A DNA stretch of 64,000 nucleotides, from positions 1,305 through 65,304 of the forward strand of contig CAZUZY010000005.1 in the NCBI GenBank assembly GCA_964624885.1. The letters are read 5' to 3'. Under the pieces are notes generated by a model. That model worked only from the letters and a program-made list of their open reading frames with translations, searched no databases and was not told the origin of the DNA. This DNA is from an uncultured Polyangiales bacterium (lineage in GTDB: Bacteria > Myxococcota_A > Polyangia > Polyangiales > JADJMO01). Each line of letters begins with the position of its first letter. Position 1 is the stretch's first letter. Made by a program: the position numbers and the translations under genes. Of the stretch, positions 24,244 through 41,508 are shown piece by piece.

Positions 24244-24503
24244 GGGAGCCTCCTCGACTTCGGTCCTGGAAACGGCGAGACGGTGGAAGCTCCGCGGGGG
24301 GACTTCAAGGCGCGACGCCCCGAAGCCCGCCTGCGCGCGACGAATGGGCGCGTCATGGGCTGTCTTTGGTCAAGATTCGTCGCGATGGGTCCCGGGGGAG
24401 ATCGCGGTTTTCGGTCTGATTTGGCCAATTTCGCGGTCCCCCCACGGTGGAGGGTGGGGGCGCGCTGGTAGCGTCGTCGAGCGCCTCGCGCAGGGAGGGT
24501 CCA

Positions 24504-25412
24504 TTGAACAAGTCGTCCGCCATCGGTCTCCGGGTCGTCGGTTTCCTCGTCGCCTCGCTCTCGCTCGTGCCGAGCATCGCCTGCAGCAAGAGCGACGCCG
24601 ACACGAAGAAGAAGTCGAGCGACGACGAGGACGACAAGCCGAAGAAGAAGAAGCGCAAGGCACCGAAGCTCCCTGACGACCAGTTCGACCAGAAGTCGAT
24701 CGATGGTGGCATGGAGCTGCTCGACAGCGAGAAGCCCGTCGCTTTCGCCGGCGTGGCCGAGCTGCAGGTGCCCGGCGGGGCCACGCGCAAGATCGACGCC
24801 CTCGGCGACGCTGGTCTCGTCACCTACCAGTACAAGACCTCACGCGACAAGGCGTTGGTGGGCTTCCTCGCACTGCTTGCGGAGAACGACTGGAAGGTCG
24901 ACGAGTGGAAGCGCCTCGAGACGGGGAGCGCCATGTTCCAGATCGCCAAGGAGGGCGAGAAGCACCAGTGCATCGGCGGCGCGCCGAAGGGCGAGGAGCG
25001 CACGGCCGGCAATCTCACGTGCTTCGTGCCCATCAAGGTGCTCAAGAAGAAGTACCCCATCGGCCTGCGCTTCGTGAGCACGCCCGAGAAGGTCAAGGCG
25101 CCGTGGAGCAACGACAAGGCCCCGTGGCCGGGCAAGGTGACCCGCATCTACGGCAAGCTCGGCTTCGTGGAGTACAACGACGGCAGCAAGGCCTGGCAGA
25201 AGCTCGACCAGATGGAGCCGCCGCAGGAAGCGGATCTCGACCCGAAGGACGACTGCGGGTTCGAGGTGAAGGACAAGGTCAAGGCGCCGTACGCGACCAA
25301 CCAGACCCTGTTCGGCGCCAAGGTCAAGGAGATCTACGGACACTTCGCCTTCCTCGAGTACGACGACAAGAACGTGATGTGGGCCGATTGCACGGCGATG
25401 AAGAAGCCCTGA
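24504..25412 (+). CDS. Lipoprotein with two C-terminal Tudor/Agenet-like (SH3-fold) repeats
   Basis: TTG start after GGAGG, lipobox SIAC, repeats EKVKAPW..WPGKV..IYG..GFVEYNDG..W and DKVKAPY..FGAKV..IYG..AFLEYDD..W. Confidence 0.65.
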   Translation: MNKSSAIGLRVVGFLVASLSLVPSIACSKSDADTKKKSSDDEDDKPKKKKRKAPKLPDDQFDQKSIDGGMELLDSEKPVAFAGVAELQVPGGATRKIDALGDAGLVTYQYKTSRDKALVGFLALLAENDWKVDEWKRLETGSAMFQIAKEGEKHQCIGGAPKGEERTAGNLTCFVPIKVLKKKYPIGLRFVSTPEKVKAPWSNDKAPWPGKVTRIYGKLGFVEYNDGSKAWQKLDQMEPPQEADLDPKDDCGFEVKDKVKAPYATNQTLFGAKVKEIYGHFAFLEYDDKNVMWADCTAMKKP

Positions 25413-25479: not shown

Positions 25480-28400
25480 ATGGGTGGGGTCGCAAGGCTG
25501 CGGAGGGGTTGCCTCGTCGGGTGCGTGCTGGTCGGCTGCTCGGTCGACCCTTCGCCGAGTGGCACGCTGCGACGCAGCGTCGACGAGGTGCAGTGGACGG
25601 TGGCGAGCCCACCCGGGGTGGTCCGCTCGGGCCACACCGCGACGCTCCTCGCTGGCGGGAAGGTGCTGGTGACGGGGGGCACCGACGGCACGACCGGTCG
25701 CGACAGCGCGACGGTCTTCGACCCGGCGACCAACGAGTGGGCGCCGACCAAGCCGATGGCCGAGCGGCGGGGGCTCCACTGCGCCGCGCGCCGCCCGGAC
25801 GGCTCGGTCGTCGTGGTGGGCGGAATCACGAGCAGTGCCACCACGGTGACTGCGAGCGCCGATCTCTTCGATCCCGCCACAGCCACGTTCTCGAAGCTGC
25901 CCTCGCTCGCCGTCGGTCGCCGTCGCCACGCCTGCGTGGCGCTCGCGAGCGGGGCCGTCCTCGTCGTCGGGGGCGAGGACGCCACCACCACGGCCCTCGC
26001 GTCGGCCGAGCTCCTCGAGGTCGGGGCCAGCGCGTGGAAGACCCTGGCCCCGATGAACGCCGTGCGACAGGCGCCGCAGCTCGCGCTCGCCGGCGACGGA
26101 CGCGTCGTCGCGGCCGGCGCCAAGACTGCCGACGTGTACGACCCCAAGACCAGCGTGTGGACCGCGGCGCCGAGCGCGATTCCGGAGGGCTCCGCGGCCG
26201 TGGCGCTGAGCGACGGGCGGGTGCTGGTCGCCGGCTACGGCGCGGGGACCTCGGTGGTCTTCGACCCCTCCACGAGCGCCTGGAAGTCGACCAAGCCGAT
26301 GGCCAAGGCGCGGGCCGGCCTGACCGGTACGCGGCTCTCGAACGGACAGGTGCTCGCGCTCGGAGGCCTGCAGCCCCCGAGCAAGCTCCTCCCCGACGCC
26401 GAGCTTTTCGATCCGGTCACTGGCGCGTGGACGACGATCGAGCCCATGCGCGCCGAGCGCCTCGGTCACACTGCGACCCTGCTGGACGACGGGCGCGTGC
26501 TCGTCGTCGGTGGGGCGAGCGGCGTCACCATCCCGCCTCCCGAGCTGTTCAACGCGCCGAACGGCGTGTCCTGCGCCACCAACGACGTGTGCGCCTCGGG
26601 GCTGTGTCGGGACGGCCGTTGCTGCGACACGGCTTGCAACGGCGCGTGCGAGGCCTGTGACGTGAAGGGCAAGGAGGGGACCTGCTCGCCGATCGACGGC
26701 GCCCCCCGCGCGGCCCACGCGAGCTGCACGCCCTACACCCAGTGCGTGGCGGGCGCTTGCGGCGCGAGCTGCGCGAGTGACGCCGACTGCACCAAGGGCA
26801 ATCTCTGCTTCACCCCCACCAAGCGATGCGCGCCGGAGAAGGGCCTCTGCGACGGGGATCGAAAGGTGCTCCACGCCGACGGGACCGTCGCCGCCGACTG
26901 CGGCGCCTACGCCTGCACGCCGGCCGGCGAGTGCAACAAGACGTGCGGGACCACGCTCGACTGCGCCCGCGGGTTCGCGTGCGAGGGCACGACCTGCGTC
27001 GCGGTCGCGGCGCCGGAGCCGGTCGACCCAGGCTGCAGCACCTCCCGTCGCCCGGGCGGCGCGCAGCCGCTCTTCCTCCTCGTGCTCGGCGCCCTGCTCG
27101 GACGGAGGGCGCTACGACGCCTGGGCTTCCTCTTCGGGGGCGTGGTCGGGTGCCACGTCGAGAGCGCCCCGCCCGTCGAGCAACGCAGCGAGGCGGCCAC
27201 CTACGTGCCCGGCGGCCTCATGCAGAACAACGCCCGCATCTACCACTCGATGACCGCGCTCGACGACGGGCGCGTTCTCGTCGTCGGCGGGCTCACCAAG
27301 GCGGGCACCGTCGCGGAGCTCTACGACCCGAAGCCCGGCACCTGGTCGCTCGCGAGCGCCACCGCGACGGCCCACGCCAACCACACCGCGACCAAGCTCG
27401 CCGACGGGCGCGTCGTGGTGATCGGCGGGCAGTCGGCCACCGCGGCGACCGAGATCTACGACCCGGTGGCGAACGGCTGGAGCAAGCTCGCGTCGCCGGC
27501 GACCCGCCGCGAGGAGCACGAGAGCGTCCTGCTCGCCGACGGGCGGGTGCTCGTGATCGGCGGGCGTCCGGCGGGCGGATCCCCCACCGCCAAGGTCGAG
27601 ATCTTCGATCCCGCCACGGGTGCTTTCACGGCGGCGGCGAGCATGGCGACCGCGCGCTCCACGTTCCTCGCCGTGCGCCTGAAGGACGGTCGGGTCTACG
27701 TGAACGGTGGCCTCGGCGTCTCCGCGGCGGAGCTCTACGATCCGACGACCGACACCTGGACCAAGACCAAGCCGCTGCCGAAGGCGCGCGACACCCACGC
27801 GGGGGCGCTCCTCGCCGACGGTGGGGTCCTCGTCGTCGGCGGGCAGGATCCCGACGTGCTGCGCTGGGACCCGACGTCCGACACGTTCGGCAAGCTCGGC
27901 GCGCTCGCCGACGTGCGCCTCGGGCTGACCATCACGCCCCTCCTCGACGGCCGCGTGTTCGTCGCGGGCGGCACCGACGCCACCGAGTCCTTCCCGACCG
28001 CGGCGACCGCGCTGGTCGATCCCACGGCCGGCACCGTCACGCCGTTCACCCGCCTGCTCTCGCCTCGCAGTAGCCATCGCGCGGCGCTCTTGCCCGAGGG
28101 GCGCGTGCTGCTGGTCGGTGGGGTCACCATCTTCGACCTCTCCGACCCGGTGCTCGCCGTGCCCGAGGTGCTCGAGCTCATGAAGGGCCACCCGTGCACC
28201 GAGGCCAGTCAGTGCGCCAGCGGGTTCTGCACCGACGGGCGGTGCTGCGATCGCGGATGCACCGAGGCGTGCAGTGCCTGCAACGTCGCTGGCAAGGAGG
28301 GGACCTGCTCGCCGATAGAGGGGCGGCCCCTCGCGGGGCACGAGACGTGCGCGCCCTACGGGACCTGCAGCGGCGGCGGCTGCGTGGGCGTCTGTGCCTC

Positions 28401-28749
28401 GGACGCGGACTGCTCGACGGACCACGTCTGCGATGTCGCGACCCACGCCTGCGTCGAGCCCAAGGCCACCTGCGACGGGCTCTCGACCGTGACCGACAAG
28501 GCGAGCAGCCTGACCCGGGACTGCGCGCCGTATCGCTGTCGGAGCAACGGCACCTGCGTCCAGCGCTGCACGACCTCGGACGACTGCGTCGGTGGCTCCG
28601 CGTGCGCGGGGAACCGCTGCGAGGCAGCCGCCCCCGCGGGCCCGGACTGCTCTCTACAGCCGACGGGGCCGGGTCGGGGCCCCGGGCTCCTCGGCGCGGC
28701 TTTCGTGTTCGTCGCCACGCTGGGACTCGCGCGACGGCGCCCGCGGTGA
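25480..28749 (+). CDS. Double Kelch-propeller / Cys-rich surface protein with two MYXO-CTERM-like signals (in-frame tandem fusion)
   Basis: Two sets of RxGHTATLLxDGRVLVVGG repeats, two homologous C..C.SG.C.DG.CCD..C...C.AC...GKEGTC modules, internal GCSTS..LFLLVLGALLGRR and terminal DCS..hydrophobic..RRRPR. Confidence 0.85.
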   Translation: MGGVARLRRGCLVGCVLVGCSVDPSPSGTLRRSVDEVQWTVASPPGVVRSGHTATLLAGGKVLVTGGTDGTTGRDSATVFDPATNEWAPTKPMAERRGLHCAARRPDGSVVVVGGITSSATTVTASADLFDPATATFSKLPSLAVGRRRHACVALASGAVLVVGGEDATTTALASAELLEVGASAWKTLAPMNAVRQAPQLALAGDGRVVAAGAKTADVYDPKTSVWTAAPSAIPEGSAAVALSDGRVLVAGYGAGTSVVFDPSTSAWKSTKPMAKARAGLTGTRLSNGQVLALGGLQPPSKLLPDAELFDPVTGAWTTIEPMRAERLGHTATLLDDGRVLVVGGASGVTIPPPELFNAPNGVSCATNDVCASGLCRDGRCCDTACNGACEACDVKGKEGTCSPIDGAPRAAHASCTPYTQCVAGACGASCASDADCTKGNLCFTPTKRCAPEKGLCDGDRKVLHADGTVAADCGAYACTPAGECNKTCGTTLDCARGFACEGTTCVAVAAPEPVDPGCSTSRRPGGAQPLFLLVLGALLGRRALRRLGFLFGGVVGCHVESAPPVEQRSEAATYVPGGLMQNNARIYHSMTALDDGRVLVVGGLTKAGTVAELYDPKPGTWSLASATATAHANHTATKLADGRVVVIGGQSATAATEIYDPVANGWSKLASPATRREEHESVLLADGRVLVIGGRPAGGSPTAKVEIFDPATGAFTAAASMATARSTFLAVRLKDGRVYVNGGLGVSAAELYDPTTDTWTKTKPLPKARDTHAGALLADGGVLVVGGQDPDVLRWDPTSDTFGKLGALADVRLGLTITPLLDGRVFVAGGTDATESFPTAATALVDPTAGTVTPFTRLLSPRSSHRAALLPEGRVLLVGGVTIFDLSDPVLAVPEVLELMKGHPCTEASQCASGFCTDGRCCDRGCTEACSACNVAGKEGTCSPIEGRPLAGHETCAPYGTCSGGGCVGVCASDADCSTDHVCDVATHACVEPKATCDGLSTVTDKASSLTRDCAPYRCRSNGTCVQRCTTSDDCVGGSACAGNRCEAAAPAGPDCSLQPTGPGRGPGLLGAAFVFVATLGLARRRPR

Positions 28750-33336: not shown

Positions 33337-35309
33337 TTGGCGGGCCCTTTGCTGGCGGAGGGCAGGGGCTTGCCGTCCGGCGCCGTGGCCGCGCCCTCGT
33401 GGGCCGGCTTGATGCGAGTGAACCACTCGTCGAACATGCGCATGGCGATCGGGGCCGCGTTGTGACCACCGCCGCCGCCGTGCTCGACCAGGACCGCGAT
33501 GGCGATCTCCGGGTCGTCGTAGGGCGCGAAGCCGGCGAACCAGGCGTGGTCGCGGTTGAAGTACCAGATGAGGTGGGGGTCGATGCCGGGCTTCTGCCCG
33601 ACGCGGGAGACCTGCGCGGTGCCGGTCTTGCCCGCCACCATCACCTTGGTCGTGCGCTCGCGGTAGGCGGTGCCACCCTCCTCGTTGACGACGCCGGCCA
33701 TGGCCTCCTTCACGAACTTGAGCTGCCCGGGATCGACGCCGATCTTGCGGCGGATCCGGGGCGGAAAATCCTGCTCGATGCCACCGCCGCCGGCGTCGGT
33801 CAGCGGGGTCTCGATGGCCTGCACCACCTGCGGTGCGTAGAGCGTGCCGCCGTTGGCGAGCGCGGCGTAGGCCATGGCGAGCTGCAGCACGGTCACCTTG
33901 GTGTTGCCCTGACCGATGGCCGCGTTGAGGGCGAAGCCGGTGCGGAACCCGCCGTAGTGCTGCATGTACCAGGCGGTGGTGGGGATGAGCCCCGGCGACT
34001 CGTGGTTGAAGCCGACCCCCGAGCGCTGACCGAACCCGAACTCGGCGTCCATCGCCGACATCTTGTCGAGCGTGGTCTTCTTGCCGAGCTGGTAGAAGTA
34101 GACGTTGCAGCTGCGCACGATCGCGTCGTGCATCGAGATCTGGCCGTGGAAGCCCTCGCACTTGAACCGCGTGCGGCTCACCTGCAGCACGTGCTCGCAG
34201 AGCTCGTGGCTGTCGCGGGTGACGGCGCCGGCGCCGAGCGCGGCGAGGGCGTGGAACGGCTTCATCGTCGACCCGGGGAAGTACGCCTCGTAGAGGGTCT
34301 TGTCGGTGAGCGGTGAGAGCGGGTTGGTGAGGATCGCCTCGGCTTGCTTCTGCGAGAGGCCGGTGACGAAGTCGTTGGGGTCGATGCCGGGCTTGCTGTA
34401 GACGGCGAGCACGCGCCCCGTCTTGACCTCGATGGCCACCACCGCGCCGGCGAGCTGCCCCGCGAAGGCCTTGCGGGCGGTGGAGACGAGATCGGCGTCG
34501 ATGGAGAGCCGCAGGTCACGCCCCGGCACCGGCGGGTTCTCGGCGGGGTTGTCGATCAGCGCCAGGTCTTCCTTGGCGGTGCGGCGGTTGCCGCGCGCGT
34601 CCATGACCACCTTCTTCCAGCCGCGTTGCCCGCGGAGGAACGCCTCCCACGCCTTCTCGACGCCGCTCCGCCCCACACGGTCGCCGGGCTGCAGGTCCTT
34701 CTTCTGGCCCTCGGGGAGGGCGTCGAGGTCCTCCTTGTTGACCTCGTTGACGTACCCGAGCAGGTGGAACGTGAGCTCCTTCTGCGGGTAGTAGCGCAGC
34801 GGCACGCTGATCCAGCTCACCGCCGAGAGCTCGGCGCGGTGGGTCTCGAGCGCGCCCACCGTGTCGCGCGAGATGTCCTCGCGGACGATGATCTCGCGGA
34901 TGCGGTGCTTCGGGTCGAGCTTGAGCGCCGCGAGGTCCTTGGCGCGGGCCTCGCGCAGGCGCTGCTCGAGGGTGGCGCGCTCGACCGGGCCGAGGCCCAG
35001 CAGCTCGGCGAGGCGCGGGTAGGTCTTGTCGAGGTCGAGGCGCGCGGGGACCACGTACACGTTCCAGGACTCGCGGCTCGCGGCGAGCACCACGCCGTGG
35101 CGGTCGCGGATGACGCCGCGGCTCGTGGCCAGCGTGACCTTGTGCACGATGTTGTCGTGCGCGATGGCGGCGTTCTCCGAGGCCTTGATGAGCTGCAGGT
35201 GGGCGAGCTTGCCGACGAGCACCAGGTTGAGGGCCACCACGGCGAGGGCCAGCCACTTGTACCGCTTGCGGAACTCGCCGACGTCGGGGCGTTGACCGAG
35301 CAGGTTCAC
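33333..35309 (-). CDS. mrdA: Penicillin-binding protein 2
   Basis: RGVIRDRHG, SxxK (GSTMK), SCN, KTGTAQ, DHAWF. Confidence 0.96.
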   Translation of the reverse strand: MNLLGQRPDVGEFRKRYKWLALAVVALNLVLVGKLAHLQLIKASENAAIAHDNIVHKVTLATSRGVIRDRHGVVLAASRESWNVYVVPARLDLDKTYPRLAELLGLGPVERATLEQRLREARAKDLAALKLDPKHRIREIIVREDISRDTVGALETHRAELSAVSWISVPLRYYPQKELTFHLLGYVNEVNKEDLDALPEGQKKDLQPGDRVGRSGVEKAWEAFLRGQRGWKKVVMDARGNRRTAKEDLALIDNPAENPPVPGRDLRLSIDADLVSTARKAFAGQLAGAVVAIEVKTGRVLAVYSKPGIDPNDFVTGLSQKQAEAILTNPLSPLTDKTLYEAYFPGSTMKPFHALAALGAGAVTRDSHELCEHVLQVSRTRFKCEGFHGQISMHDAIVRSCNVYFYQLGKKTTLDKMSAMDAEFGFGQRSGVGFNHESPGLIPTTAWYMQHYGGFRTGFALNAAIGQGNTKVTVLQLAMAYAALANGGTLYAPQVVQAIETPLTDAGGGGIEQDFPPRIRRKIGVDPGQLKFVKEAMAGVVNEEGGTAYRERTTKVMVAGKTGTAQVSRVGQKPGIDPHLIWYFNRDHAWFAGFAPYDDPEIAIAVLVEHGGGGGHNAAPIAMRMFDEWFTRIKPAHEGAATAPDGKPLPSASKGPAK

Positions 35310-35896
35310 GAGACGCTCCTCCGCTCGTCGCGGCCCGTCGGCACACGCCGCGGCGGCAACGAGGCCGAGAGGCTGCCCTTGCCCTCCCGGGGCTCGACCA
35401 GCCCCGAGGCGATCGCCGAGACCCGCGCCGCCGCGCGGAACACGAGCGGCGCGAACACGATGGTCGCGGCGGCGTGGGGCAGGATCAGGCGGAACATGGC
35501 CCGGGGCACATAGGCCCCCTTGCCGAAGATGGCGAGCAGCACGATGACCATCAGGGTGCCGAGCCCGGCGAACGCCCCGGCGAGCACCGCGCGCGCCCAC
35601 CCCGACTGGGTGACGATGCGCAGACCCGCGAGCCGCGCGAGGGCCACGGTGGCGACCGACGTGAACGCGTAGAGCCCGATCGGCGCGCCGCCGATGACGT
35701 CGAGCACGTACCCGAGCAGGAACCCCACGCTCGCCGCGAGGGCCAGGTTGGACTCGCTGACGGCCACGTAGACGAGCAGCGGCACGAGCAGCGACGGCCG
35801 GAACCCGCGCGCCGCGAGGGGCCCGAGGACGATCCAGGTCTCGCCTTGCAGCACCACGAGCACGAGCCCGAGCAGGAGGAACAGCGTGTACCGCAT
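35306..35896 (-). CDS. mreD: Rod shape-determining protein MreD
   Basis: Hydrophobic protein with GYVLDVIGGAPIGLYA, between mreC and mrdA. Confidence 0.88.
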   Translation of the reverse strand: MRYTLFLLLGLVLVVLQGETWIVLGPLAARGFRPSLLVPLLVYVAVSESNLALAASVGFLLGYVLDVIGGAPIGLYAFTSVATVALARLAGLRIVTQSGWARAVLAGAFAGLGTLMVIVLLAIFGKGAYVPRAMFRLILPHAAATIVFAPLVFRAAARVSAIASGLVEPREGKGSLSASLPPRRVPTGRDERRSVS

Positions 35897-35899
35897 CGC

Positions 35900-36775
35900 C
35901 TACTTCTTCGGGGCAGGCTTGGGCTCGGGCTCCTTGGGGGCGCCGGCCGGCGGGACCACGAGCGCCTCCTCGAGCCGCGAGAACGAGACCACCGGCTCGG
36001 CCTCCACCTCTTGGAACTCGCCGAAGCCACGGTTGTGGATCTTGGTGATGCGGGCGACCGAGACGCCCTTGGGGAACCGCGCGCCGATGCCGCTCGTGAC
36101 CAGGAGGTCGCCGACGGCCACCTCGTCGGCGCGCTTCATGTACTCGACCTTGCAGGTGTACTTGGTGAGATCGCCGGTCCCGCGCACGAGGCCGCGCGCG
36201 CCGGTGCGCTCGTCCACCACGTCGATGGCGAGCTGCGGGTCGACGGCGAGCTGCACCTCGAGGGTGGCGCCCTCGGCGCGGAGCACCACGCCGACCACGC
36301 CCTCCTCGGAGAGCACCGCCCACCCGGGCTTCACCTCGGAGCTCACCTTGTCGAGCAGGAGGTTGGTCACGCGGAAGTCGCTCGCGTCCTTGGCCACCAC
36401 CTGGGCGGTGAGCGCCTCGGGCCCGAGCTGCTCCTTGAGGCCGAGCGCCTTCTTGAGGCGACGGTTCTCGGCCTCCATGGCCTCGAGCCGGCGCACCTTC
36501 TCCTTGAGGGCGATGTTCTCGTGGCCGAGCTTGTCGTTCTCCGCCTTCACGTCGACCAGGTACACATAGGACCCGAACAGCGCCGAGACCCCCTTGCCGA
36601 GCACCGCCCCCACGTACTGGAGCGGCTTGAGCGCGCGCAGCACGATGCGGTCGAGGGCGTTCAGATCGCGGGGCTGTCGCACGTGCGACCGCAGCACGAA
36701 GAACGGCAGGGCGAGCAGGAGCGCGACGACCACGGCGTCACGCAGCCGCCGCCAGCTACCGAGTTGAGCGGTCAT
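35900..36775 (-). CDS. mreC: Rod shape-determining protein MreC
   Basis: TM + coiled coil (ENRRLKKAL), EEGVVG, GDLLVTSG...FPKG, FSRLEEALV. Confidence 0.95.
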   Translation of the reverse strand: MTAQLGSWRRLRDAVVVALLLALPFFVLRSHVRQPRDLNALDRIVLRALKPLQYVGAVLGKGVSALFGSYVYLVDVKAENDKLGHENIALKEKVRRLEAMEAENRRLKKALGLKEQLGPEALTAQVVAKDASDFRVTNLLLDKVSSEVKPGWAVLSEEGVVGVVLRAEGATLEVQLAVDPQLAIDVVDERTGARGLVRGTGDLTKYTCKVEYMKRADEVAVGDLLVTSGIGARFPKGVSVARITKIHNRGFGEFQEVEAEPVVSFSRLEEALVVPPAGAPKEPEPKPAPKK

Positions 36776-36787
36776 GCCCGAGACCCG

Positions 36788-39248
<2,461 letters not shown>

Positions 39249-40047
39249 CCGGCACGATCGCGATCACCGGCTGCGTGCGGGCGTGCAGGTAGAGGGCGAG
39301 GCCCACGCCGAACAGCGCGAGCGAGAGCCACTGCCCGGGCGTGAGGCCGACGTAGCGCGCGTCGGCGCCGCTGATGTCGGTGGCGCGGAGGGCATCGAGG
39401 GGGTAGCGAACGGGCGCGTAGATCATGCAGAGCACGCCGGTGATCTGCCCGGCGCGGCGCGGCGCCCGCGCGTACCACCACATGAAGGCGGCGATTGGGA
39501 TGGTGATGAACATCTCGAGCAGGCCGAGGTCGAAGCGCGCGCCCCCGGGGAACGCGACCGCGAGCGGTGAGCTCGAGAGGCGCCCGATGTGGTCGTGGGC
39601 CGAGGCGCACCCGGCGCGGCCGAAGATCCAGCTCACGGCGAACACCGCGGTGATCTGGTCGGCGTAGGGGAGGAGCTTCTCCTTGAACTTCTGGCGCCAC
39701 ACGAGGGCGCCGACGAGGCCGCCGATGAAGCCGCCGTAGCTCGAGATGCCCTTCCACACGTAGAGGAGGGTGATCGGGTTCGCGAGCACCTCCTTGGGCC
39801 GGTACATCAGCTCGTCGAGCACGTGCGACAGCACGAACCCGAACACGAGACAGTAGGTGACCAGCGACTCGAACTTCTGGCGCGAGAGCCCGCGCGCGAC
39901 GGCGCGGCGCACGGCGAGCGCCGAGCCGACCATCACGCCGGTGGCCACCAGCGCGCCGAACGCGTGCAGCTTGAGCCCGATCACCGGCAGGGCGATTGGC
40001 TTGATGTCGAGGTAAGGGAGCGGCATGGAGGTCGGGATCCGCCGAGG

Positions 40048-41241
40048 TCAGTGCGGGTCTTCCTCTTCGTCTTCTTCGTCGTCGCTCGGCTTGGCCGGGG
40101 CCGGCTTCTGCTCGGGGAGCTTCTCGAGCTTCACGGTGAGGTCGAACGCCTTGCTGTCGCGGACCACGCGCAGGGTCACCTTGCGGCCCACGCCCGCGAT
40201 GGAGACGAGCCACCGCATCTGGCTCGAGTTCTTCACCGGGGTGCCGTCGACCGCGAGGATCACGTCGTCGACCTTGATGCCGGCCTTGGAGGCGGGGGTG
40301 CCCTTCTTGACCGACACCACCAGGGCGCCCTTGGTGCCGAGCTTCTCGTCGAACTCGGAGTCCTCGATGCCGACGCCCAGGTAGCTGCGCACCACCCGCC
40401 CGTCCTTCACGAGCGAGGGCAGCATCTGCTTGACCATGTTGATCGGGATGGCGAACGCGAGGCCCTGGGCCTTGGCGTTGATGGCCGTGTTGATCCCGAT
40501 GACCTCGCCCTTGAGGTTGAGGAGCGGGCCGCCGCTGTTGCCCTGGTTGATGGCGGCGTCGGTCTGGAGGAAGTCGAAGTAGTGCTGCCCGGGGAGCGGC
40601 ACCTCGTTGATGGTGCGGCCGCGCGCCGAGAGGATGCCGGTGGTGACCGTCTGCCGGAGGCCGTGCGGGCTGCCGATGGCCACCAGCCAGTCGCCGACCG
40701 CCACCGCGTCGCTGTCGCCGAGGGCGATGGGCTCGATGCCGGCCGGCGGGTCGATCTTGATGACGGCCACGTCGGTCATCGGGTCGGTGCCGAGCACCTT
40801 CGCGTCGACCCGCTTGTCGTTGTAGAGCTGGACCGCCAGGTCGCTCGCGTCCTGCACGACGTGGTTGTTGGTGAGGATCGTGCCGGACTTGTCGATCAAG
40901 AACCCGGAGCCGATGCCCTTGCCGACCATGTGCCCCTTCTTGATCTTGAGGAGCACCGTGACGACGGCCGGCGCCGTGGCCTTGGCGAGCGGCGCGAAGC
41001 TCGTGGGCGTGCCGATCGGCGGGATTCCCCCGGGGATCTGCACCGGCTTGCCGCCGGTGGGCAGCCCGACGGTCGGGGTGGAGACGCTCACCGCGTTGGT
41101 GGGCAGGCCCTTGCCGTCCTTGCCGTCCTTGCCGTCCTTCGCCTCGTCGTCGCGGTCTCGTCGGCAGCCCGGACCGAGGGTGCCGAGCACGCCCAGGGTG
41201 AGGGTGGTGGCGAGGACGGCGGCGAGGCGACGGAGGTTCAT
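40048..41241 (-). CDS. HtrA/DegP-like trypsin serine protease with one PDZ domain (lipoprotein)
   Basis: GSGFLI, TNNHV, DVAVIKI, QTDAAINQGNSGGPL, YLGV PDZ. Confidence 0.95.
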   Translation of the reverse strand: MNLRRLAAVLATTLTLGVLGTLGPGCRRDRDDEAKDGKDGKDGKGLPTNAVSVSTPTVGLPTGGKPVQIPGGIPPIGTPTSFAPLAKATAPAVVTVLLKIKKGHMVGKGIGSGFLIDKSGTILTNNHVVQDASDLAVQLYNDKRVDAKVLGTDPMTDVAVIKIDPPAGIEPIALGDSDAVAVGDWLVAIGSPHGLRQTVTTGILSARGRTINEVPLPGQHYFDFLQTDAAINQGNSGGPLLNLKGEVIGINTAINAKAQGLAFAIPINMVKQMLPSLVKDGRVVRSYLGVGIEDSEFDEKLGTKGALVVSVKKGTPASKAGIKVDDVILAVDGTPVKNSSQMRWLVSIAGVGRKVTLRVVRDSKAFDLTVKLEKLPEQKPAPAKPSDDEEDEEEDPH

Positions 41242-41507
41242 CCCTGGGGCTCCTTGGAGCGCTCCACGAACTGCATGCGCAGGTCGTAGAGCACCTGGTC
41301 GATGAGATGCTCCTCGGCGCCGGTGAGGTTGCCCTTGGTCTTCTCCTGCAGCATCCCGACCATGTCGATGGTCTGCCGGGCGAGCGCGAGATCGGGCGCG
41401 GACGGGGTGCCGTCCGGCGGCGGCGCGACGCCGAGGTGGACCAGCGCCGTCTGCGACAGCGACAGGATGAGGGTGCTGAAGTCGATCGACGGGAGGGGCT
41501 CGGCCAT
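41238..41507 (-). CDS. DUF1844 family protein
   Basis: DFSTLILSL...ALVHLG...ARQTIDM..ML.EKTKGNLT..E..L....LYDLRMQFVE. Confidence 0.88.
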   Translation of the reverse strand: MAEPLPSIDFSTLILSLSQTALVHLGVAPPPDGTPSAPDLALARQTIDMVGMLQEKTKGNLTGAEEHLIDQVLYDLRMQFVERSKEPQG

Positions 41508-41508
41508 C

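Follow-up and report, generated by a model that had tools for sequence, protein, structure and literature searches.

In the window, a 64,000-nt stretch from an uncultured Polyangiales bacterium of sludge (GenBank assembly GCA_964624885.1, contig CAZUZY010000005.1, positions 1,305 to 65,304 of the forward strand), one open reading frame (ORF) on the plus strand encodes two complete and homologous surface-protein units in a single chain, each consisting of a lipobox-containing signal peptide, a six-bladed Kelch propeller, a stalk with 24 cysteines and a tripartite tail of cysteine, hydrophobic stretch and arginine cluster. The sequence features point to an anciently fused and conserved two-module MYXO-CTERM precursor from which a short membrane hairpin is probably excised to yield two anchored surface proteins; the cleavage itself we infer from the motifs. 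The ORF runs free of stops from TTG 25444 or ATG 25480 to TGA 28747-28749. The in-frame TTG would give a protein of 1101 aa, whereas its database entry (P0001) has the ATG as its start and is 1089 aa long; residues are numbered here from TTG 25444. The parts of the ORF are as follows.

25480..28749, plus strand: the whole ORF, a two-module precursor of 1089 aa from ATG 25480.
25480..25539, plus strand: signal peptide 1 with its lipobox, MGGVARLRRGCLVGCVLVG followed by the cysteine, read from the sequence.
25591..26541, plus strand: Kelch propeller 1, six blades, residues 50-366 (Pfam Kelch_1/4/6 at E = 1e-51 to 1e-60; PDB; AF2).
26551..27009, plus strand: Cys-rich stalk 1, residues 370-522, with 24 invariant cysteines (alignment A3; cysteine count; AF2).
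27028..27120, plus strand: internal MYXO-CTERM-like tail, made up of PGC(531)STS.., the hydrophobic stretch PLFLLVLGALLG and the Arg cluster RRALRR (TIGR03901, 16.3 bits).
27037..27150, plus strand: putative excised hairpin, residues 532-569 (38 aa), between the two processing cysteines, placed from the motifs.
27103..27153, plus strand: internal signal peptide and lipobox, made up of RRALRR, the h-region LGFLFGGVVG and Cys570 at 27151-27153 (sequence; profile alignment).
27193..28161, plus strand: Kelch propeller 2, residues 584-906 (Pfam; AF2 with Foldseek).
28165..28629, plus strand: Cys-rich stalk 2, residues 908-1062, with 24 cysteines (module alignment; A3; cysteine count).
28642..28746, plus strand: terminal MYXO-CTERM-like tail, made up of PDC(1069)SLQ.., the hydrophobic stretch LLGAAFVFVATLGL and ARRRPR (tripartite layout; TIGR03901, 6.9 bits).

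The two modules align from end to end, signals and tails included, with 37% identity (E = 1e-87). A preliminary description, made from the letters of this DNA alone, had recognized two complete surface proteins in one frame, and all of its statements about the sequence hold, including the positions it gave for Gly530 (27031), Cys570 (27151) and an in-frame GTG (27082). The junction between the modules lacks a stop codon, as described there, and the ORF reads straight through ...VAVAAPEPVDPGC(531)STSRRPGGAQPLFLLVLGALLGRRALRRLGFLFGGVVGC(570)HVESAPP....

Signal peptide 1 is built from RLRR, GCLVGCVLVG and C32, with LVGC as its lipobox and Cys32 (nt 25537-25539) as the mature +1 residue. It is the only signal that is N-terminal; the internal signal lies mid-chain, from residue 554, and matches the G+LPP lipobox pattern in all but that pattern's N-terminal anchor. 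Both the internal and the terminal tail have the tripartite layout of MYXO-CTERM, with an invariant cysteine, a hydrophobic helix and an Arg-rich cluster. The terminal tail ends a protein that carries signal peptide 1 at its start, and the internal tail, whose Cys531 starts at nt 27034, has another 545 residues after it.

The same arrangement recurs in a family of relatives. Our protein search recovered nine full-length relatives of 1055-1129 aa with 37-48% identity over 91-95% coverage, from Polyangiales metagenome-assembled genomes; the sole one with a taxon name is called Polyangiales. Taken together with the genome scan described below, the nearest relatives are from Polyangiales, Polyangiaceae and Sorangium. 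All ten aligned proteins have the two-module layout and the junction in common, and at the DNA level each of the three loci L002, L003 and L004 shows a frame that stays open through the junction, from one stop codon to the next. When the twenty half-proteins were placed in a neighbour-joining tree, the N-terminal halves formed one clade and the C-terminal halves the other (mean identity 40% within the N-halves, 41% within the C-halves and 35% across the two groups), and the duplication and fusion are therefore older than the divergence of the family. One of the two explanations offered in the preliminary description, a recent loss of the stop codon between tandem genes, is contradicted both by this tree and by nine relatives at such low identity that have the same ORF and junction. 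It had also raised the question of whether orthologues are one gene or two, and in all nine full-length relatives they are a single fused ORF. An unfused orthologue was not found in the search with module 2. The only full-coverage match of about 530 aa in that search, P0210 (532 aa, 48% identity to module 2), was considered and rejected as a candidate; its contig starts 24 nt upstream, and since its frame is open to the first contig base, reading RRKLLLASMLVSC..., P0210 is a fused gene cut by the contig end.

Across the ten proteins the junction consists of a small residue and cysteine, a first hydrophobic stretch of 12-17 aa, two to six arginines and a second hydrophobic stretch of 10-16 aa, which ends in a small residue and cysteine in eight proteins and in an AxA-like site in the other two (P0009 and P0015). 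The length of the second stretch is usual for the h- and c-region of a signal peptide and falls short of what a stable transmembrane helix needs, and from the Arg loop onward the junction profile aligns to the true N-terminal signal peptides of stand-alone Kelch proteins. The tail cysteine is the sole invariant column over all 20 tails (ten proteins with two tails each). The MYXO-CTERM model TIGR03901 matches 18 of the 20, and its curated cut-off of 20 bits is exceeded by six of the ten internal tails, at 21.1-25.7 bits, when these are scored as isolated peptides. The signals of the junction and the tails appear to be under selection, with the features for processing kept across the family.

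The domains between these signals are well defined. Pfam matches above the gathering thresholds cover many repeats in both halves (Kelch_4, 202 bits; Kelch_6, 182 bits; Kelch_1, 170 bits), the sequence matches in the PDB are six-bladed Kelch domains, and Foldseek places the AF2 model beside Keap1, KLHL and SAKe6 with TM-scores of 0.70-0.76 relative to the target. Each Kelch domain is accordingly modelled as a closed six-bladed propeller. Enzymatic readings of the Kelch domains (GlxA, NanM) were rejected, as every score is far under its cut-off; for the oxidase model NF052501 (GlxA / galactose oxidase) the score is 132 bits against a cut-off of 800 and is spread over the Kelch repeats only. The stalk is predicted by AF2 with a pLDDT of 92 as a strand-poor, disulfide-rich body for which neither a sequence nor a fold match was found in the PDB, and this model may represent a disulfide-rich stalk fold of Myxococcota surface proteins that has so far gone undescribed. 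The stalk module also stands alone in 86 small proteins (92-301 aa), and a few of them are labelled MYXO-CTERM domain-containing by their source. The 86 were the only proteins given by the search with stalk profile A3, whose candidates seem to track the query length; with all matches at or below 301 aa, this search cannot settle whether relatives have one gene or two.

The cysteine content of the modules bears directly on their possible lipidation. Counted together with its tail, each of the 20 stalks in the family has exactly 25 cysteines, that is, 24 plus the tail cysteine, and the window protein has 28 cysteines in C32-C531 and 26 in C570-C1069. After pairing, only the lipobox cysteine and the tail cysteine are left over in each module, and by this count both are free for lipidation. 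The full-length AF2 model is confident at both propellers and both stalks (pTM 0.59), its pLDDT is under 50 in precisely the three signal or anchor regions (residues 1-47, 523-583 and 1063-1101), and it places no fixed contact between module 1 and module 2. Because confidence is high in the four domains and low at the junction, the modules look autonomous and the junction does not look like a folded linker.

MYXO-CTERM proteins, as described by Guo, Haft & Wall (mBio 2025, PMC11980579), leave the cytoplasm through Sec and stay anchored in the inner membrane by their tail helix; lipidation of the invariant cysteine has been proposed, with Lgt as the candidate enzyme, and the CPBP protease MrtX cleaves Cys-dependently before the type II secretion system delivers the product to the surface. 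Applied to the window protein, signal peptide 1 would start Sec export of module 1, the hydrophobic stretch of the internal tail would act as a stop-transfer sequence with the Arg cluster remaining cytoplasmic, and the second hydrophobic stretch would serve as an internal signal peptide that restarts export for module 2. The terminal tail would stop transfer again, leaving both modules in the periplasm, linked by a short membrane hairpin. Lgt and signal peptidase II (LspA) would then act at Cys32 and Cys570, with a cut before Cys570, while Cys531 and Cys1069 would be lipidated and the myxosortase MrtX, a CPBP intramembrane protease, would cut after each of them. The 38-aa hairpin (residues 532-569, nt 27037-27150) would be discarded and two 500-aa lipid-anchored proteins, C32-C531 and C570-C1069, would be released. 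Each of these would be lipidated at both ends, because both modules of the window protein also start with a lipobox; most relatives have a first signal of the signal peptidase I type, unlike the window protein. The preliminary description had named a polyprotein cut at its internal signal as its other explanation, and this is the one that fits the evidence best, since the features for processing are kept across the family; its layout being old and conserved, cleavage of the precursor into two anchored proteins is the most likely outcome in the cell, although we infer the cut rather than observe it.

Several observations weigh against such processing. Scored as isolated peptides, both tails of the window protein stay under the TIGR03901 cut-off, and they are assigned as divergent MYXO-CTERM members by homology and not by score, because the homologous internal tails pass in six of the ten relatives. 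The lipobox cysteine is lost in two of the ten proteins. No mrtX or other CPBP-type gene lies within the 64-kb window; we assume that mrtX is present in this genome because MYXO-CTERM proteins are reported to occur in all examined genera of the phylum (PMC11980579) and because the genome is assigned to this phylum. In the literature we found no bacterial precedent for signal peptidase II acting on a lipobox that follows a large exported domain. A search for RNA evidence turned up no RNA runs. Finally, the junction is not always kept intact, because in the double-module protein of L018:462-6302 (Polyangiales bacterium ant_bin.485) it is without the Arg loop. There it has collapsed to DAGGCSTSRTPRGFPTFPLFAFASSLLVLAGCTSRE (ORF residues about 1075-1100), which consists of the MYXO cysteine, one hydrophobic stretch and the lipobox cysteine, with the second stretch missing as well. 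One membrane span joining two exported domains makes an odd topology, and the L018 junction could reflect decay, a deletion or a dispensable hairpin.

If the hairpin is not cut, the product would be a polytopic inner-membrane protein in which two periplasmic Kelch-stalk modules stay linked and at most the outer signals are processed, a reading that we regard as unlikely while giving it real weight. The order of hydrophobic stretch, Arg loop and hydrophobic stretch is a self-consistent topology for an uncut chain, the conserved fusion could mean that the modules must stay linked one to one, and bacterial cleavage at an internal lipobox was not found in the literature. However, the hydrophobic stretches are short for membrane anchors, most of all the second, and a mere anchor needs neither an invariant unpaired cysteine nor the lipobox cysteine or AxA-like site seen in the 24 junctions that we examined. 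The lack of a fixed contact between the modules in the AF2 model, with its pTM of 0.59 and its low-confidence junction, also speaks against a permanently joined protein, and unfused, translationally coupled pairs in relatives (described below) indicate that the modules work there as separate proteins.

Module 2 might instead be made a second time from an internal start at GTG 27082 or CTG 27121, as a gene within the gene, which we consider improbable. A product started at GTG 27082 would begin with M-LGALLGRRALRRLGFLFGGVVGC, which is plausible as the signal peptide of a lipoprotein, and a GGAGG lies in the loop at 27104-27108, upstream of CTG 27121. The sequence before GTG 27082 is pyrimidine-rich and, as the preliminary description had stated, contains no Shine-Dalgarno sequence, the sole codon well spaced from the GGAGG is the CTG, and a start there would drop the positive n-region. 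Ribosomes translating module 1 would read through in any case, the Val and Leu codons of a hydrophobic stretch give start-like codons by chance, and a second start leaves the long-kept fused frame unexplained.

The idea that the fusion stems from faulty assembly or sequencing, or from a strain-specific stop-loss that is decaying into a pseudogene, is refuted by the same junction without an indel in three studies, by the fused ORF in nine divergent relatives and by the half-protein tree, even though a cluster of rare codons sits at the junction and its CGA is one transition away from TGA. The identical protein occurs on 9 contigs of different assemblies, which include Logan assemblies and a JGI contig of 70 kb. 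In addition, we compared contigs of four runs from four separate studies (bioreactor, activated-sludge and unspecified metagenomes) over 26800-27400 and found no indel in any of them. Three of these runs, from independent studies, span the junction: X1 is identical across it at about 27x depth, X6 is identical over 27057-27207, and X5 differs solely by G27108A, a synonymous natural variant (AGG to AGA). Because the protein recurs on 9 contigs and the junction is reproduced in three studies, assembly error, which the preliminary description had proposed to check at this place, is excluded.

The rare codons that it had pointed out at the junction are indeed the most extreme of the gene.

27100..27117, plus strand: rare-codon cluster GGA CGG AGG GCG CTA CGA, in the putative cytoplasmic loop, the rarest six-codon window (rank 0 of the 1084 in the gene).

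The second rarest window is the n-region of signal peptide 1 (GCA AGG CTG CGG AGG GGT, 25492-25509), and L002 and L003 have rare Arg codons both at the junction and in the Arg clusters of their C-terminal tails. With the same bias present in that n-region and in Arg clusters of relatives, we rejected the rare codons both as a sign of a recent event and as the relic of an intergenic spacer. The bias follows the Arg clusters beside hydrophobic segments, as in the n-regions of signal peptides. Within the window gene, rare Arg codons (AGG, CGA, CGT) make up about 5 of 11 in the Arg clusters flanking hydrophobic segments versus 8 of 55 elsewhere. It is a matter of speculation that they slow translation during membrane insertion.

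The origin that the preliminary description had suggested, a fusion of tandem paralogues, is retained, with the qualification that the event is not recent. A scan of species-representative genomes turned up many Kelch / Cys-stalk / MYXO-CTERM paralogues in Sorangium, Polyangium and uncultured Polyangiaceae, and at three loci (L046, L039 and L016) such genes form unfused tandem pairs. At L046:2060-2200 the two genes overlap in an ATGA: gene 1 stops with the TGA at 2120-2122, and gene 2 starts with the ATG at 2119-2121, which follows GGGGAGCGG. Gene 1 ends in a MYXO-CTERM tail and gene 2 starts with the lipoprotein signal peptide MMRRSIAFVVCAALLGC, and going by these sequences one indel at the overlap would yield exactly a junction of the window type. 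Because unfused pairs of this kind exist, the fusion of translationally coupled tandem paralogues is the likely origin of the two-module gene, and the L046 arrangement likely resembles the state before the fusion.

The same type of junction is present in non-orthologous Polyangiales proteins (P0008, P0053, P0061, P0078, P0087, P0093, P0107, P0406, L011, L019, L030, L037 and L049), and a MYXO-CTERM tail followed by a signal peptide appears from these sequences to have arisen repeatedly. Judged by eye, a small residue and cysteine or an AxA-like site comes after the second stretch in all 24 junctions that were examined, and the strict G+LPP lipobox regular expression matches 13 of the 24; we attach no statistic to this count because G+LPP is too permissive in Cys-rich and Kelch sequence for a background rate. 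A search of 1.84 billion representatives with the junction-spanning profile A5 gave 16,477 matches at E = 1e-30 or better, from which no family count can be drawn because the Kelch repeats swamped the profile; it added one new junction, that of P0406. Two more long Kelch proteins of the representative search, P0326 (about residue 1155) and P0414 (about residue 646), contain the internal lipoprotein-signal-like strings RLALLLAMSALAAC and RLSALLAAALLLVGC, respectively, which may, by their sequence, be further fused junctions.

We tentatively propose, as a possibility that we hold less firmly than the cleavage of the window protein itself, that Polyangiales have a 'surface polyprotein' route. A chain would pass through Sec twice, myxosortase and signal peptidase II would excise the hairpin, proteins anchored at both ends would be delivered in a 1:1 ratio, and the junction would be a recurrent and selectable mode of fusion rather than an occasional accident.

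Parts of this picture have precedents. The paper of 2025 cited above already reported MYXO-CTERM motifs inside proteins and suggested processing of such fusions; it calls internal motifs rare and names MXAN_5598 of Myxococcus xanthus as its one example. In MXAN_5598 (PMC11980579) the motif likewise lies in the middle of the ORF and is ascribed to a fusion of two genes, and the N-terminal part is proposed to be processed and surface-anchored; the downstream part, in contrast, is an outer-membrane beta-barrel with an OmpA domain and without a second MYXO-CTERM. In the window protein both halves are complete paralogous units, the internal tail is directly followed by a lipoprotein signal, and the arrangement is family-wide. 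A signal peptide after the internal tail of MXAN_5598 is not mentioned in the accessible text of that paper. Among our own matches P0078 (1755 aa) has the layout of MXAN_5598, in which an internal MYXO-CTERM separates a large N-terminal part from an OmpA-like C-terminus, and in its residues 1320-1365 a type I signal peptide (..LTSPLAHA-QAP) directly follows the internal tail.

For cleavage at a mid-protein sorting signal the closest experimental case is HVO_0405 of Haloferax volcanii (Abdul Halim et al. 2017, PMC7157517), also a fusion of two independent genes, in which cleavage by ArtA at a central tripartite signal was shown and found to need the lipidation machinery. It differs in being archaeal, with PGF-CTERM and ArtA as another class of signal and enzyme, and in being described as specific to one strain; a second export signal or sorting tail is not described for it (PMC7157517). 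The design of each module, a head on a stalk on a lipid anchor, resembles that of TraA of M. xanthus, which has a signal peptide, a variable binding head, a Cys-rich stalk and a MYXO-CTERM. TraA is the prototype MYXO-CTERM substrate, cut Cys-dependently by MrtX and brought to the surface by type II secretion (PMC11980579). TraA, however, is a single module with a PA14-like head instead of a Kelch propeller, and no match between its stalk repeats and those of the window protein is detectable, TIGR04201 reaching just 9.8 bits in the latter. In mechanism alone the window protein is also like viral envelope precursors (bunyavirus Gn/Gc and the polyproteins of pestiviruses and flaviviruses), where a first anchor is followed by an internal second signal and the hairpin is cut by membrane-embedded or membrane-associated peptidases; those precursors are processed in the eukaryotic endoplasmic reticulum by host signal peptidase and signal peptide peptidase, with no lipidation and no homology. 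The literature that we found on internal lipoboxes or signal peptides in polyproteins is almost only viral, with no bacterial example.

In the literature that was accessible to us, four features are not described. Each half is a complete unit that runs from signal to MYXO-CTERM, the internal tail passes directly into a lipoprotein signal peptide, which would leave a hairpin to be excised, the family is conserved over deep divergence, and the junction type recurs in many independent fusions.

The surroundings of the gene show no conserved partner or synteny among the relatives, and the genes upstream of it in the window, in L002 and in L004 are unrelated. The neighbours in the window are an HMGL-like gene, an uncharacterised Lys-rich lipoprotein gene, a DJ-1/PfpI gene and a gene for an AraC-type regulator, and the further features in question are the following.

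24447-25412, plus strand: upstream lipoprotein gene, about 300-320 aa, with the lipobox ..SIAC-SKSD and a Lys/Asp-rich linker.
35309-36787, minus strand: mreC and mreD, envelope housekeeping genes, downstream.
39211-40047, minus strand: lgt, about 10 kb downstream.
40051-41508, minus strand: gene for an HtrA-type protease with a PDZ domain, an envelope housekeeping gene, downstream.

The upstream lipoprotein gene lies 68 nt from the two-module ORF and may be co-transcribed with it, and it is not kept beside the relatives. Its product has no Pfam match and contains two similar C-terminal segments, VKAPWS..GKVTRIYGKLGFVEYNDGSKAWQKL and VKAPYA..AKVKEIYGHFAFLEYDDKNVMWADC. The genes lgt, mreD, mreC and the HtrA-type gene lie about 7-13 kb downstream, and although Lgt is the enzyme proposed to lipidate both kinds of cysteine, nothing ties lgt to the two-module locus.

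The family and a dozen unrelated proteins indicate that a MYXO-CTERM tail with an immediate new signal peptide can sit in the middle of a protein and persist there for a long time, and genome annotation misses such internal C-terminal sorting tags because the tags are defined by their position at the end of the protein. If the hairpin is indeed cut, this would be, as far as our literature search extends, the first bacterial chain to give two lipid-anchored surface proteins by way of two intramembrane proteases, and a parallel with viral glycoprotein precursors. Proteins of this kind would then also be natural reporters of myxosortase cleavage, convenient because a chain of about 112 kDa would give way to a pair of products near 50 kDa each, and could be used to ask whether lipidation precedes cleavage, which enzyme lipidates the cysteine and whether Lgt and LspA accept signals that are not N-terminal.

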